A stretch of 64,000 nucleotides of DNA, taken from an uncultured Clostridia bacterium (GTDB taxonomy: Bacteria > Bacillota > Clostridia > Lachnospirales > Lachnospiraceae). The notes under the pieces were generated by a model. That model worked only from the letters and a program-made list of their open reading frames with translations, was not told where the DNA came from and made no database searches. The stretch covers positions 43,787 to 107,786 of the forward strand of contig CAMUJB010000007.1 in assembly GCA_947089095.1 (NCBI GenBank). The letters run 5' to 3'. Of the stretch, positions 1,754 to 64,000 are shown piece after piece (the stretch's first letter is position 1; the number at the start of each line of letters is the position of its first letter). The position numbers were made by a program, and so were the translations under genes.

Positions 1754-1914
1754 AGTCAAATCGGATATTCGCAATCCGCTTCGCTACTTGCTCATAACCT
1801 CATAGCTGCTACCGCAACTTTTCAGTGGGAGTCTGCACTCCCACTGAAACAAGGAAGTCCCCCGCTTCTAAGCCGCCAAGGCGAAAGCGGGGGACTTCCT
1901 TAATGAGGTTAAAA
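1754..1914 (+). repeat. Fam-B hairpin repeat, long form (gtcaaatcggatattcgcaatccgct...ggacttccttgatgaggttaaaa) with extra internal palindrome ttcagtgggagtctgcactcccactgaa
   Basis: Near-identical copies at 8710, 11412, 40200 and 63841. Long inverted repeat aacctcat(c)aaggaagtccc / gggacttccttgatgaggtt. Confidence 0.75.
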
Positions 1915-2094
1915 TAAAAACAAAAAACACATAACAAACACGGAACACTGGAATAAATAAATAAAATAAAAGAAAAGAAAAAAAATCATAAACCAACCAA
2001 TAAAAAAATATATCCAGCAAACACCCAAAATCAATCTAATTTCATAACAAAAAACAACAAAAGGTAAAAACAAAACATAAATTGTGCCATAATA

Positions 2095-2338
2095 CAGCCA
2101 GAGTGCATTAGGGGTACACGGTGACTTCGTAGGAAAGTTAGAGGCTCTTAGACTTCTGTCGATCCATTAGGATTTTTTGCCATTCTCGAATGGCAAAAAA
2201 AGGGGTGTGTTTAGCCCGCTGTACGGGCGAATTGCACCCCGATCCGTCCGGTTAGATACACCCAACACCAGAAGTCTTAGAGCCTCTAACTTTCCTACGA
2301 AGTCACCGTGTACCCCTAATGCACTCTGGCGTCCCCTC
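2095..2338 (+). repeat. Fam-A palindromic structured element, copy 1 (core variant A; arms perfectly complementary)
   Basis: Termini cagccagag...ctctggcgtcc. ~60-bp inverted arms (gtgacttcgtaggaaagttagaggctcttagacttctg / rc). Conserved core ggatttt-P1-aaaaa-ggggtgtgtttagcc-cgctgtacgggc-gaattgc-acccc-gatccgtccgg. Nine copies in the window. Confidence 0.85.
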
Positions 2339-2358
2339 CGAAATCCTCTTTCCCCCTC

Positions 2359-3852
2359 TTAAATCCTCCCATACCGCTTTGCAATACCCAAAATCTCTTC
2401 CTGCAATTCCTTTGACAAATCCTCTTCCGTCAAACGCCACCTCCAGTTCGTCCCCACTGTAGAAGGCGTATTAATCCGACATGTATTATCATACCCAAGA
2501 TAATCCTGCATTGGAATAATACAAGTCTTTGCATTACTTCGCATCACCAAAGCAATAAACGCCTTATACAACAACTCCTTCGGCGTATAAAGATCACAAA
2601 GATACTCCCTTGCCATCTGCTGCTCTGCCTTTGAAATCGACTCAAACCACCCGCAGATTGTCTCATTATCATGAGTCCCTGTATAAGCCACACTATTTTC
2701 CATATAATTATGAGGCAGATAGTCATTTGCCGATCCAGAATCTCTAGAATCAAAAGCAAACTCCAACACCTTCATTCCCGGAAATCCACTGTCTGCAACC
2801 AACTGCCGCACCGAATCCGTGACATACCCCAAATCCTCTGCAATTACCTCATGCCATCCAAGCCGCTGTTCTACACAGCGAAACAGCTCAATCCCAGGGC
2901 CTTTCTCCCAATGCCCAATCTTCGCCGATTCCGCACCATAAGGAATCGAATAATACTCATCAAATCCCCGAAAATGATCAATCCGCACAACATCATACAG
3001 CCGAAAACAATAAGCCAGTCTTGAAACCCACCATTCATATCCAGTCTGCTTATGATACTCCCAGCGATACAAAGGATTCCCCCAAAGCTGCCCGTCTGCC
3101 GAAAACCCATCCGGCGGACATCCTGCTACCGCACAAGGTACATTCTGCTCATCTAACTGGAACAATTCTGGATGTGCCCAAGTATCCGCACTGTCCATTG
3201 CCACATAGATAGGAATATCCCCAATCAAGGCAATCCCCTTCTGATTGGCATACGCCTTTAACTGCCTCCACTGTTCAAAAAACTTAAACTGCATATACTG
3301 CTGAAACTCTATCTCAAAATATAACTCCCTGCGATAATAATCCATCGCAAGTCCCCAACGCAGCCGAATATCCTCTGCCCACTGCGTCCATGCTACGCCC
3401 TCAAACCGATCCTTAACCGCCATAAACAACGCATAGTCCGAAAGCCACCACTTATTTTCCTCTACAAACCACAGATAATCCGCATTTTCACTGACCTTAC
3501 TGCGTTCATACGCCTTTCGAAGCAAAGGATACCGATTTTGATAGAGCTTCTCATAATCAATATCTTCTAACCGACTTCCAAAATCCGCCTCTTCACACTC
3601 CTCCTCTGTCAAAACCCCTTCCTCTATCAGTGCCTCCAAACTAATAAAATAAGGATTTCCTGCAAACGTAGAAAATGACTGATAAGGAGAATCTCCATAA
3701 CTGGTAGGTCCAAGCGGCAAAATCTGCCAATAGGTCTGTCCGGCTTCTTTCAGCCAGTCTACAAAATCATATGCACTCTTTGAAAAACAGCCAATCCCAT
3801 AACGGGAAGGCAAACTGGTAATGGGAAGTAAAATACCTGCTGAACGTTTCAT
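2359..3852 (-). CDS. malQ: 4-alpha-glucanotransferase (amylomaltase, GH77)
   Basis: N-terminus MKRSAGILLPITSLPSRYGIG..GQTYWQILPLGPTSYGDSPYQSFS is the canonical MalQ signature. 497 aa. Confidence 0.9.
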   Translation of the reverse strand: MKRSAGILLPITSLPSRYGIGCFSKSAYDFVDWLKEAGQTYWQILPLGPTSYGDSPYQSFSTFAGNPYFISLEALIEEGVLTEEECEEADFGSRLEDIDYEKLYQNRYPLLRKAYERSKVSENADYLWFVEENKWWLSDYALFMAVKDRFEGVAWTQWAEDIRLRWGLAMDYYRRELYFEIEFQQYMQFKFFEQWRQLKAYANQKGIALIGDIPIYVAMDSADTWAHPELFQLDEQNVPCAVAGCPPDGFSADGQLWGNPLYRWEYHKQTGYEWWVSRLAYCFRLYDVVRIDHFRGFDEYYSIPYGAESAKIGHWEKGPGIELFRCVEQRLGWHEVIAEDLGYVTDSVRQLVADSGFPGMKVLEFAFDSRDSGSANDYLPHNYMENSVAYTGTHDNETICGWFESISKAEQQMAREYLCDLYTPKELLYKAFIALVMRSNAKTCIIPMQDYLGYDNTCRINTPSTVGTNWRWRLTEEDLSKELQEEILGIAKRYGRI

Positions 3853-4734
3853 CTATCTTTCTCCTTTCATCTTTTGCATGATTTCTTCCTCTGTCTCTAT
3901 CAAAACTCCAAAATGATCCGATACCTTTGGTGCTCTTTCTCCATTAAACAGTACCTTAGAATACGAGATCGGCATCTCTTTATTACACCAAATCACATCC
4001 ATTCTCATTCCCTCCGGTCTGTCCTGCTCCTGAGAAAATTCTCTCCATCCATCAATACAGCCCTCTACTGTAATCCCGCTGTCCTTTTGCTCTGCCAGAT
4101 TATAAGTATCCAGCCATCCGTCCCCACTGATACAATCATAACCCTGTCCACGAAATTCCGCCGGACTGTTAAAGTCCCCCATCAGCCAGATCACAGATTC
4201 CTCCCCTTTCTGCTGCAGCCGAGTATTCAGCCGTTTCCACTGTGCCAAAAAAGGTTCTTCTTCATCTTCCCACCAGCCCATATGAACCGTATAGAACCAG
4301 TGATCACTCTTCTCTGTCCGCACGCCTAATACCCGGCGTGTTTTCCAATTTTTATAGTCCTGACAACCACTGATAAAAAAAGATTCCATCTCGGTTAGTT
4401 TTTGATTGATAGCCAATACGGCGATTCCCTCATCATAGATATCATATCCTATCTTTGCCGAGATCCAAGTCCAAGAACAGGGAATTCCCGCCTGATGCAG
4501 CCGAAATGCTGCCTGTGCAGCATGGTTATCCTGACGAATCGGCACGGCATCCGGGCAGGGAACCCAGCCCTGCAGCAGCTTTGCATCTGCAAAAGGTGCT
4601 GACAGAGACTGATTCACTTCCTGCAAAGCAATCAAATCGGGTTTTTCTTTCTGAATAACAGAAAGAAAGAAATCGAGCTTCTGCAGATAATTCTCTTCTT
4701 GAAGACTGTGTGTATTTAAAGTCAACAGCTTCAT
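3853..4734 (-). CDS. mapP: Endonuclease/exonuclease/phosphatase-family protein, probable maltose-6'-phosphate phosphatase
   Basis: EEP fold (LIALQEVNQ, GDFNS motifs). It sits between a Glc/Mal-family PTS permease and malQ, as mapP does in Enterococcus. Confidence 0.6.
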   Translation of the reverse strand: MKLLTLNTHSLQEENYLQKLDFFLSVIQKEKPDLIALQEVNQSLSAPFADAKLLQGWVPCPDAVPIRQDNHAAQAAFRLHQAGIPCSWTWISAKIGYDIYDEGIAVLAINQKLTEMESFFISGCQDYKNWKTRRVLGVRTEKSDHWFYTVHMGWWEDEEEPFLAQWKRLNTRLQQKGEESVIWLMGDFNSPAEFRGQGYDCISGDGWLDTYNLAEQKDSGITVEGCIDGWREFSQEQDRPEGMRMDVIWCNKEMPISYSKVLFNGERAPKVSDHFGVLIETEEEIMQKMKGER

Positions 4735-4789
4735 CTGTTCTATTCCCTCCTATTTTCTTAAACGAGATCACCCATTCTCGTTCTATTTT

Positions 4790-63160: not shown

Positions 63161-63293
63161 CTGCTGGTGAATCCCTGCTGGGGCCGTTTGCACTAAGGCT
63201 TCCTCGCAGCGGACACATAAGGCACGAAAGTACCGTGCCTAAGTGCCGGCGGGAAGCAATACCCCTGCAGAGATTCACCAGCAGCTACAATCT
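63161..63293 (+). repeat. Fam-C hairpin repeat, copy c (outer arms ctgctggtgaatccctgc / gcagagattcaccagcag differ from copy a but stay complementary)
   Basis: Same conserved core as 8471..8598. Confidence 0.75.
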
Positions 63294-63326
63294 GTCTATC
63301 TCAACGGAATGTTTGGTAGAATCGCT

Positions 63327-63593
63327 TTACCAAGTTGTTTTCTGATCTTTATGTGTATAATGTTTCATCTGTACTAATAAATTGGACAATTTTTCTTGAT
63401 AATATTCTTTCTGTTTTTCATCCAGTTTATTTGCATCAAGATATTCCTGAAAAACCTTTTGAAATTCCTTTAAATTTTCTTGTGCTGCGTCTTTATAATT
63501 ATTTGACATATTCATTTGTATCTTTTGTAAAATTGTCTCTAACTGAGCATTTTTCTTTGCTTTATTTTTCAGATCTTTAAAAAATAAAAACAC
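63327..63593 (-). CDS. Hypothetical small coiled-coil protein (GTG start; doubtful)
   Basis: 88-aa ORF, Lys/Gln-rich, weak RBS spacing. No family recognised. Confidence 0.25.
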   Translation of the reverse strand: MFLFFKDLKNKAKKNAQLETILQKIQMNMSNNYKDAAQENLKEFQKVFQEYLDANKLDEKQKEYYQEKLSNLLVQMKHYTHKDQKTTW

Positions 63594-63796
63594 GGATTTA
63601 ATTTAACCTCCTAAATCTTTAAATTAAAAACATATCGCCTATTTTATATAAAAATGCGGAGAGAAATCCATATTTTTCCTCTCCGATCTATTTACCATCT
63701 CTATTATAAAAGCAGCCTTAAAATTTTTCAACTATATTTTATTATAAATATAATATTCCATGTAAAACATAAAAAAATTTTCACTAAAGCATAAAA

Positions 63797-63916
63797 GTCA
63801 AAGAAAATTCGGAATTCGTTCCGCTACCTCCTTGATAGGGTCAGATATTCGCAATCCGCTTTCGCCTTGGCGGCTTAGAAGCGTGGGACTGTGGGACTTC
63901 CTTGATGAGGTTAAAA
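63797..63916 (+). repeat. Fam-B nested copy: short form followed by 5'-truncated standard form
   Basis: gaaaattcggaattcgttccgctacctccttgataggg | tcagatattcgcaatccgctttcgccttggcggcttagaagcgtgggac...gggacttccttgatgaggttaaaat. Confidence 0.6.
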
Positions 63917-63945
63917 TAAGATACAAAACAGCTCGCCCTAAGGGA

Positions 63946-64000
63946 TCTTTCTTTGCAGGGGTATTGCTTCCCGCCGGCACTTAGGCACGGTCTTTTCGTG
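63946..64000 (-). repeat. Fam-C hairpin repeat, copy d (truncated by window end)
   Basis: ctttctttgcaggggtattgcttcccgccggcacttaggcacgg = rc of the Fam-C 3' half. Confidence 0.6.

Follow-up and report, generated by a model that had tools for sequence, protein, structure and literature searches.

The intergenic DNA of an uncultured Lachnospiraceae bacterium from the mouse gut appears to have been colonised throughout the genome by structured repeats, of which one family, here called Fam-A, resembles the TwoAYGGAY RNA motif and occurs as position-specific subtypes that probably have terminator or leader roles; we put the probability of this reading at roughly 0.6. The repeats were studied in a window of 64,000 nucleotides (nt), positions 43,787 to 107,786 of contig CAMUJB010000007.1 (assembly GCA_947089095.1), which holds copies of four families, Fam-A to Fam-D, together with tandem arrays. 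The evidence comes from the anatomy of the elements, the covariation in their stems, their copy numbers, the rules that govern their orientation, their absence from corresponding sites in sister species, and polymorphism between strains. These patterns suggest terminator and leader functions, a role at the RNA level, and possibly some form of mobilisation.

Repeat content of the window and the genome

The window has 41% G+C and a GC skew that is strongly negative all along, and nearly all of its genes, which are housekeeping genes (malQ, thiC/thiM, polA, coaE, ruvAB, NAPRTase and queH), lie on the minus strand. Its sequence is identical to part of metagenome contig ERZ13657768 NODE_149, and is 98.5–99.1% identical to contigs of MGBC128194, a metagenome-assembled genome (MAG) listed in a mouse-gut catalogue as 'uncultured Lachnospiraceae bacterium'. 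Comparison of the window with itself (blastn) gave 23 repeated intervals that sum to 4,789 nt, or 7.5% of the window, and all repeated bases lie between genes. An earlier reading of this DNA from its letters alone (the sequence-only reading) had estimated about 4.5 kb, or 7%, and its counts of nine Fam-A, eight Fam-B, four Fam-C and four Fam-D copies with three arrays proved nearly exact. We find nine Fam-A, seven Fam-B (five of full or medium length and two short), four Fam-C and three Fam-D copies, and four to five tandem arrays; the Fam-B count becomes eight when copy 63796, the last of the full ones, which blastn returned in two pieces, is counted twice. No copy lies inside a real gene, as that reading had also stated, the open reading frames (ORFs) that overlap repeat copies being short, contained in repeat or array DNA, and treated here as spurious.

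Had the copies been confined to this region, local duplication would have been a sufficient account, but they are spread across the genome. When the Fam-A core pattern was run against 185,579 species-representative genomes, it returned at least 120 blocks, each of at most 8 kb, and all 120 blocks among the matches listed come from the single same-species MAG, MGBC128194. Profile searches (nhmmer) of 755 kb of this MAG found at least 181 copies of Fam-A, about 56 of Fam-B, 7 of Fam-C and 14 of Fam-D. In the window and MAG blocks together (818.5 kb), Fam-A makes up 5.0% of the sequence and families A to D make up 34% of the non-ORF bases; since the presence of Fam-A was the criterion by which the blocks were chosen, these densities are upper estimates. 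Full-length copies account for 119 of the 190 Fam-A copies in the blocks and window. Truncation at the 5' end, as in retroelements, was considered for the other 71 and rejected, since 62 of these partial copies simply stop where a block or contig does, and only 9 are internal. Many contigs from other samples also terminate within Fam-A copies, and the repeats therefore fragment assemblies of gut Lachnospiraceae.

Structure of Fam-A and its relation to TwoAYGGAY

Fam-A copies are 240–290 nt long, and the nine in the window can be aligned over about 260 nt. The stem is flanked on its 5' side by an unpaired leader (GGAAnAnACA) and on its 3' side by a tag (GCGTCC). The consensus fold (RNAalifold) contains 93 pairs: a basal stem of about 55–60 bp (about 58 pairs, divided among three helices) carries four small conserved hairpins, two central and two flanking. 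Two subtypes are distinguished by their leaders, which read AAACGTAAATTGTGGAAnAATACAGCC in type I (about 238 nt) and ..CCTCTATGGAT..ATGAATCAAC..ATCTACCGGCAGGAAAAAACAGCC in type II (about 252 nt). The sequence of the basal stem differs from copy to copy through compensatory changes, as does that of both central hairpins, and standard pairs fill 97.9% of the alignment cells. Both sides have changed at 42 of the 93 pairs, compared to 24.9 ± 2.8 after shuffling (none of 500 shuffles reached the observed value) and to 8–12 with slid partners. At least three pair types occur at 31 of 70 pairs when 95 anchored copies are compared.

Folding z-scores ranged from -14 to -20 for Fam-A, from -6 to -14 for full Fam-B copies and from -8 to -11 for Fam-C. 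The claim that all of the repeats form hairpins therefore goes a little too far: Fam-D is weakly structured (-2 to -4), Fam-B copy 63796 scored about -0.5 to -0.9, and the short forms of Fam-B have no significant structure compared to shuffled sequence. The sense strand of Fam-A was the better folder in 65 of 70 copies, and G-U pairs outnumber A-C mismatches by 67 to 9 in type I and by 38 to 24 in type II, an excess that indicates selection on one strand. Such selection fits an RNA, and equally fits a transposition substrate consisting of one DNA strand.

Fam-A resembles a known RNA motif. The Fam-A copy at 48942–49117 (minus strand) scored 70.5 bits against the Rfam model of TwoAYGGAY (RF01731; Weinberg 2010, PMC2864571), for which the gathering threshold is 43, and the model also matched five of about 36 copies in 18 MAG blocks at 55–78 bits. 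Like the form of this motif found in Bacillota, Fam-A has two successive hairpins on a common long basal stem, and its host, like that of TwoAYGGAY, is a gut Clostridiales bacterium. Its terminal loops are UCUCGA-like and GCUGCAC-like, and the loop positions of RF01731 were skipped by cmscan; two invariant motifs of the core, UAGGAU and UUGGAU, are located at junctions, outside the two hairpins. We take Fam-A to be a member or relative of TwoAYGGAY, in the long-basal-stem form of Bacillota, and covariation lends its structure strong support. Most copies, 33153 and 33546 among them even at E ≤ 10, were not reported by the Rfam search, perhaps dropped by its speed filters. When Fam-B, Fam-C and two of the Fam-A copies were compared with Rfam, nothing came up beyond chance matches to hairpin models of the microRNA type.

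Orientation, subtypes and divergent pairs

The placement of Fam-A follows the neighbouring genes. The 3' end, with its GCGTCC tag, points to the nearest gene; median distances are 54 nt for stop codons and 140 nt for start codons. The choice between the two depends on subtype, the 3' end facing a start codon in 31 of 36 type I copies and a stop codon in 24 of 30 type II copies (Fisher p = 6e-8). Type II copies thus lie tens of nt past a stop codon, convergent with the gene, while type I copies, which read in the direction of the gene, precede its start codon by about 140 nt and are located behind a TAAATT box that resembles a -10 element. The sequence-only reading had placed several repeats exactly at gene 3' ends, and the type II copies, together with Fam-C, are indeed found tens of nt from stop codons. 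The C-rich 3' tails of type II copies (TCCTCCCCCC...) often contain short tandem repeats (window 22502–22529 and 53404–53478, and MAG flanks); read on the mRNA strand of the upstream gene, they form a G-rich tract resembling a ribosome-binding site (RBS) just after the stop codon.

Neighbouring Fam-A copies less than 2 kb apart are always divergent (45 of 45 pairs, with no tandem and no convergent case), so that the tags point outward. Where both members could be classified, 20 pairs combine type I with type II, one combines two type I copies and none combines two type II copies. Minimal pairs have a gap of about 50 nt and a common conserved centre of about 75 nt, into which arrays or unique DNA are inserted in wider pairs. 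The genes enclosed by wide pairs are just one esterase-like and one XRE-like gene, with no transposase among them.

Two such pairs are found in the window. In the first, a type I copy at 21556–21837 (minus strand), whose 3' end is directed toward the start of an FAD-oxidoreductase gene, forms the left arm, and a long-armed copy with a type I leader at 22226–22510 (plus strand), ending 23 nt from the stop codon of an M23 peptidase gene, forms the right arm. Between their 5' ends lies a tandem array of 7.9 units of 39 nt (21817–22119), the unit of which holds the type I leader motif AAACGTAAATTG. The second pair joins a type I copy at 33153–33431 (minus strand), facing the start of an HD-domain gene, to a type II copy at 33546–33836 (plus strand), which ends 36 nt from the thiC stop codon; the array between them (33422–33547) has 2.8 units of 45 nt, each a type II leader/centre segment, CCTCTATGGATACAGGAATCAAC. 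The remaining five copies comprise one with a type I leader at 2049–2338 (plus strand), its GCGTCC end 21 nt from the malQ stop codon; a type I copy at 48902–49196 (minus strand) that faces the start of an anti-sigma gene and is the copy that reached the Rfam threshold; and three type II copies on the plus strand, at 38343–38628 (22 nt from the NAPRTase stop codon), at 42981–43256 (after the stop codon of a pilM-like gene) and at 53124–53408 (after that of an M32 peptidase gene). An array of 4.6 units of 66 nt (38047–38347) abuts the 5' end of copy 38343, a C-rich repeat of 2.1 units of 37 nt (53404–53478) is located on the 3' tail of copy 53124, and a further array of 2.5 units of 22 nt occupies 63086–63140.

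Across the 818.5 kb, 12 of 21 strong intergenic arrays adjoin the 5' end of a Fam-A copy and 3 adjoin a 3' end. Each locus has array units of its own, yet they are copies of Fam-A leader or centre sequence. The arrays also vary between strains: the 39-nt array has 5.8 to 11.6 units in strains that are about 99% identical, and the 66-nt array has about three units fewer in strain L002. The centre of the pair, about 75 nt long, is thus prone to tandem duplication, which yields strain-variable arrays.

With GC skew as a proxy for replication direction, the sense strand of type I lies on the leading strand in 33 of 42 copies and that of type II on the lagging strand in 41 of 45. The strand bias that the sequence-only reading proposed to look for is therefore present and follows gene direction; its dependence on replication cannot be separated from that on transcription, because 87% of ORFs are themselves on the G-rich (leading) strand.

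The other repeat families

Fam-C shares the frame of Fam-A. Read on the other strand, it has the ends of a type II copy, with a 5' CGG(Y)(M)GGAAnAnACAG leader and a 3' GCGTCC(TCC) tag, around a variable and perfectly complementary basal stem and a conserved core that is unlike that of Fam-A. Its tag end is near a stop codon in 8 of 9 cases, at a median distance of 25 nt. The four window copies, listed here on the strand that reads like the Fam-A sense strand, form two divergent pairs. One consists of 8457–8614 (minus), with its GCGTCC end 33 nt from the stop codon of a lacI-family gene, and 9327–9484 (plus), whose GCGTCCTCCCCCC end is separated by 23 nt from the stop codon of the gene at 9507–9974 (minus); this pair encloses a GNAT acetyltransferase gene and a Fam-B copy. 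The other consists of 63146–63302 (minus) and 63927–64000 (plus), the latter incomplete because the window ends within it. Inside this second pair, beside Fam-B, positions 63310–63593 (minus) may hold a small ORF, some 90 codons long and equipped with a GGAGG RBS. No families with the Fam-A leader and tag were found besides Fam-A and Fam-C.

The ends of Fam-B and Fam-D differ from this frame, although both usually occupy the same spacers. The description of the families as unrelated consequently applies to Fam-B and Fam-D, which are separate, and fails for the others, because Fam-A and Fam-C have end motifs in common and the arrays are built from Fam-A leader and centre sequence.

Fam-B is present in the window as long forms at 1750–1924 (plus in the orientation of the profile model, the opposite, gene-direction strand folding better) and 40197–40370 (plus), medium forms at 8708–8839 and 11409–11539 (both plus), a degenerate copy at 63796–63926 (plus) and short forms at 37538–37586 (plus) and 49193–49244 (minus), the last of which abuts the 5' end of Fam-A copy 48902; the degenerate copy and the short form at 37538 lack significant structure. 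Where Fam-B lies within 300 nt of Fam-A it faces the Fam-A 5' end in 15 of 18 cases, 10 of these by its own 3' end. All full copies open with (A)GTCA. The copy at 8709–8823 is missing from a strain contig (L139, 6297–6611) of 98.6–99.6% identity, where the empty allele reads GAAAGAAATTAAGTCATAAAAC and joins AAGTCA to TAAAAC; this is a single case with an imprecise junction, and does not amount to a clean insertion.

Two individual Fam-B copies deserve mention. The end of copy 40197 supplies a TTGACT 18 nt upstream of a TATACT that precedes the NAPRTase gene (window 40143–40200, minus strand), and this TATACT is kept across species (compare L132, 17780–17848); judging from these boxes, the Fam-B copy may have contributed the -35 promoter box of the gene. 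In copy 1750 the loop of the inner hairpin (CTAAGCCGCCAAGGCGA) is inverted relative to the other copies (window 1859–1917 compared to 8774–8832), a change of the kind expected from template switching at a palindrome.

Fam-D runs along the genes, beginning at the T-tract of a host terminator (TTTTTTAT, followed directly by GYATAC...) and ending in a hairpin of its own (CGAGTAGGGAAA..TTTCCCTACTCG). Its window copies, all on the minus strand, are at 30971–31069, at 37746–37844, between the terminator of a thiamine pyrophosphate (TPP) riboswitch and thiM, and at 49327–49425, right behind the T-tract of a tRNA-Leu terminator; a relative that retains the hairpin only is found at 40417–40450. The TPP riboswitch (37876–37986, minus) lies upstream of a thiM-thiE-thiD-thiC operon, and the tRNA-Leu(CAA) gene occupies 49470–49553 (minus), each in a repeat-crowded spacer. 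The Fam-D copy in the thiM leader is kept at the same site in a species of 79% PolA identity (L135, 16929–17020). Behind the tRNA-Leu terminator of the closest sister species (L156), Fam-D was not found by eye, nor were Fam-B and Fam-A.

Sister species and strains

Orthologous loci were compared in sister species at 79–90% PolA identity. The spacer between pilM and the next gene, 398 nt in the window (PolA 100%) with Fam-A copy 42981, is 15 nt in L156 (PolA 90%) and 19 nt in L132–L134 (85%), and in L135 (79%) the genes overlap; in L136 (88%) it contains a Fam-C-like element, inside which the contig ends, and in L157 (85%) it is 445 nt long with no element recognised by eye. The spacer between the M32 peptidase gene and queH, 512 nt in the window with copy 53124, is 121 nt in L156, 146 nt in L136, where it contains half of a Fam-C-like element, and 132 nt in L132–L134, where it holds an ordinary terminator; the genes are not syntenic in L135 and the region is off the contig in L157. 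No Fam-A was detected by nhmmer in the first 95 kb of the sister loci L131–L136, and for L156 and L157 its absence was judged from spacer lengths and reading by eye, with no profile search. Beside the pilM locus, the window encodes a protein of 812 amino acids (40475–42913, minus) with shoulder and repeat domains of the Major Vault Protein (PF11978, PF17795) and a weak SPFH match; this vault-domain gene is next to the pilM/ftsA-like gene in L132–L134, and is absent there in L135, L156 and L157.

The M32–queH spacer of L156 contains a hairpin (GTTCTTCCAAACTCTATGCTGCTTTTTCG, L156 2035–2110) that resembles the terminal arm and T-tract of Fam-A copy 53124 (GGGCTTCCAAACTCCAGCTGGTTCTTTCTGG; window 53124–53160 and 53380–53420), with GGATGC on its 5' side where Fam-A has GGACGC; the likeness was read directly, MAFFT being uninformative. 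On this likeness, the site may carry the remnant of a collapsed element or a precursor, and not be a virgin site. Core-less frames, consisting of tag, short hairpin and U-tract, which could have served as insertion targets, were not found in this genome.

Among strains, Fam-A copies were identical in occupancy in all of the contigs compared, which come from about 10 assemblies of about 99% identity over different parts of the window, and there is accordingly no sign of current Fam-A activity. The presence of the repeats is lineage-specific, Fam-A being missing from the orthologous sites of sister species, and one Fam-B copy is polymorphic between strains of about 99% identity.

Proposed functions and alternative explanations

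We suggest that type II Fam-A and Fam-C serve as a transcription terminator or 3'-end stabiliser of the upstream gene. The transcript of this gene would read the G-rich tract, then the giant hairpin, then GCUGUUUUUUCC, and it is because of this order, and because the orthologous site of L132 carries an ordinary terminator, that the terminator role is proposed. Type I copies would act as a leader or small RNA transcribed toward the downstream gene. An intergenic spacer occupied by both would then hold an inverted pair of type II and type I, tags outward, around an array-prone centre.

Several observations weigh against this interpretation, in addition to the selection of the MAG blocks for Fam-A content. 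The RF01731 threshold was passed by just 1 of the 9 window copies and by about 5 of the 36 MAG copies, and the AYGGAY consensus loops from which TwoAYGGAY takes its name are absent from Fam-A. In type II copies, too, the sense strand is the better folder, which is a poor match to a purely antisense terminator. The -10-like box of type I has no conserved -35 partner; a promoter scan gave 39 sites compared to 39 in shuffled sequence, and promoter and terminator scans flagged no Fam-A copy. Finally, the likeness of the L156 hairpin to a Fam-A arm suggests that absence from a sister species may sometimes reflect loss and not gain.

Among the alternatives, the one that retains most weight, at what we would call roughly one chance in four, is that all of the families are non-autonomous single-stranded DNA (ssDNA) transposons mobilised in trans by one HUH/Y1 enzyme, either a TnpA of the IS200/IS605 type or a tyrosine transposase associated with repetitive extragenic palindromes (RAYT), Fam-A pairs then being oversized doublets of the kind known as REPINs. 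The hairpin-dominated anatomy agrees with this, as do the short unpaired motifs, common to Fam-A and Fam-C, that flank the palindrome, the strict inversion within pairs, the hundreds of near full-length copies, the sister species without elements and the polymorphism of Fam-B between strains. Strand-asymmetric folding would also be expected if one DNA strand were the substrate, and transposition of this type would account for the lack of target-site duplications at single copies and at pairs alike: at single Fam-A copies the best result was 8 of 94 that share a 5-mer, compared to a null maximum of 5, which is not robust, and pair flanks showed no duplication. However, searches of the 818 kb (phmmer, tblastn) recovered no homologues of Y1 transposases, RAYT or IS200/IS605 genes, a weak negative because the queries were approximate and the genome was partly sampled, and no multi-copy protein family, the apparent ones being spurious ORFs through repeats. 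The elements are also 5–10 times the length of REPs and REPINs and carry no GTAG tag, no conserved motif exists outside the Fam-A leader, where a target motif of 4–5 nt would be expected on the 5' side, Fam-A is fixed in all the strain contigs compared, and Fam-B and Fam-D lack the ends of Fam-A and Fam-C. The sequence-only reading had offered a shared mobilising machinery of this sort, with a search for the enzyme and for a shared 5' insertion motif as checks. Neither check gave a positive result, and that interpretation is supported in part: the shared ends of Fam-A and Fam-C fit a common machinery or a common functional frame, and the anatomy is compatible with a REPIN-like ssDNA route of the IS200/IS605 or REP/RAYT type.

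A somewhat less probable idea, which we regard as speculative, keeps the putative functions and assigns them to a single mobile unit. The pair of type II and type I copies with its centre of about 75 nt might be a composite intergenic cassette of about 560 nt or more, which would provide a terminator to the gene upstream and a leader or promoter-proximal RNA to the gene downstream, and which would be moved by unrecognised machinery that is neither RAYT nor IS200; the cores of Fam-A and Fam-C would be interchangeable within one leader/tag frame. If this were true, the cassette would be the Firmicutes counterpart of the REPIN system, and perhaps represent the ancestral logic of TwoAYGGAY loci.

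It is improbable, in our judgement, that Fam-A copies are independently transcribed genes for small RNAs that bind CsrA, with arrays that multiply GGA sites and a copy number that reflects dosage, not mobility. In its favour, TwoAYGGAY of Clostridia has been suggested to bind CsrA (PMC4333381), the Fam-A core has the two invariant GGAU motifs, CUAUGGAU occurs both in the type II leader and in the 45-nt array, folding favours the sense strand, and CsrA-like ORFs occur in the same-species MAG (L110, 846–1049; L026, 544–675), although the latter, found by tblastn with an approximate query at E of about 1e-8, are a lead only. Against the idea, the GGA motifs lie outside the terminal hairpin loops, the usual CsrA sites; several arrays lack a GGA motif on their sense strand, and the search for a conserved promoter found none. 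Nor would a sponge explain nearly 200 copies oriented to gene ends as well as a cis-acting or structural role does.

Least probable of the four is a spread that involves no dedicated enzyme, by template switching, slippage and recombination between copies, with cores swapped in a conserved terminator frame: the arrays do behave as variable-number tandem repeats derived from the pair centre, the inner loop of Fam-B is inverted in one copy, a single orthologous site is occupied, depending on the species, by Fam-A, by something Fam-C-like or by a small hairpin of which one arm matches, and neither target-site duplication nor enzyme gene was found, but such processes leave the arrival of elements at about 200 unlinked intergenic sites unexplained, the genome contains no core-less frames, and the predominance of G-U over A-C points to selection on one strand and not to the simple copying of one arm from the other.

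Three further candidates were rejected. An origin as miniature inverted-repeat transposable elements (MITEs) of the DDE type found little in its favour, flanking direct repeats being barely above shuffled controls and pairs having none. A phage origin is unsupported because the families are nearly absent from viral contigs (no match of Fam-A or Fam-C, and one Fam-B match at a contig end). Variable stem arms acting as guides were dropped, the blast matches not being separated from matches to other family members.

Comparison with known systems

The proposal that the genome has been colonised by a TwoAYGGAY-like element with putative terminator and leader roles finds its nearest parallel in recent work on the motif itself. 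No function has been known for TwoAYGGAY since its description in 2010, and mobile-like behaviour was reported in 2026, for Pseudomonas. According to that preprint (10.64898/2026.09.22.753630, September 2026), the motif is multi-copy in Pseudomonas, 68% of its doublets are divergent, short repeats lie at its 5' side and repetitive extragenic palindromic (REP) arrays at its 3' side; its authors also describe Bacillota members with a long basal stem, and suggest a mobile-element-like expansion. Fam-A shows the same syndrome in another phylum, being present in many copies, enriched in divergent doublets and bordered by repeats on the 5' side, and it follows much stricter rules. Its doublets are 100% divergent, its pairs are heterotypic (I+II), and which subtype is present depends on whether a gene start or a gene stop is adjacent. 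The repeats on its 5' side have units of 20–66 nt that derive from the pair centre, in place of motifs of 5–6 nt, and a second core, that of Fam-C, carries its end motifs.

REP and REPIN elements, which are mobilised by RAYT (Bertels & Rainey 2011, PMC3116915), are likewise intergenic palindromes that are often located just downstream of genes, form inverted doublets, leave no target-site duplication, reach hundreds of copies in a genome and are passed on vertically within their lineage. Fam-A differs in that its unit is 240–290 nt long with several hairpins, compared to 20–40 nt for a REP, in its ends (GGAAnAnACA and GCGTCC, with no GTAG head), and in the distinct subtypes of its two arms. 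The inverted doublet that characterises REPINs is found in all 45 close Fam-A pairs, and by analogy the doublet may be the unit that moves. The CGTC-tagged REPs (Di Nocera 2013, PMC3733652), which have not been reported in Firmicutes, carry a 5' CGTC head on a short palindrome and occur mostly as head-to-head dimers. They share with Fam-A an unpaired CGTC-containing tag beside a palindrome, a mainly dimeric arrangement and the absence of a known dedicated transposase, whereas in Fam-A, an element about 10 times larger, the tag follows the palindrome on its 3' side and faces outward in the dimers. The elements thus fail the defining features of REPs, CGTC-tagged REPs and DDE-type MITEs. Compared to a Rho-independent terminator, type II Fam-A and Fam-C similarly present, along the upstream gene, a GC-rich hairpin followed by a U-rich tract, but the Fam-A stem is about 10 times longer and branched, the U-tract is imperfect, and termination is only predicted.

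Genomes of Firmicutes with several families of structured, non-coding intergenic repeats, some of them MITE-like and transcribed, include the Bacillus cereus group (bcr1–bcr18) and Streptococcus pneumoniae (BOX, RUP and SPRITE). To our knowledge, these families have no sequence relation to the repeats described here, no subtype rule that distinguishes starts from stops, and no strictly divergent heterotypic pairs. Although the RNA motif of Fam-A and its mobile-like behaviour in another phylum were already known, the strict pairing and subtype rules, the frame that Fam-C has in common with Fam-A, and the origin of arrays from the pair centre are new details. They lead to testable predictions, namely that the subtypes have terminator and leader function, and that the pair is the unit of mobility.

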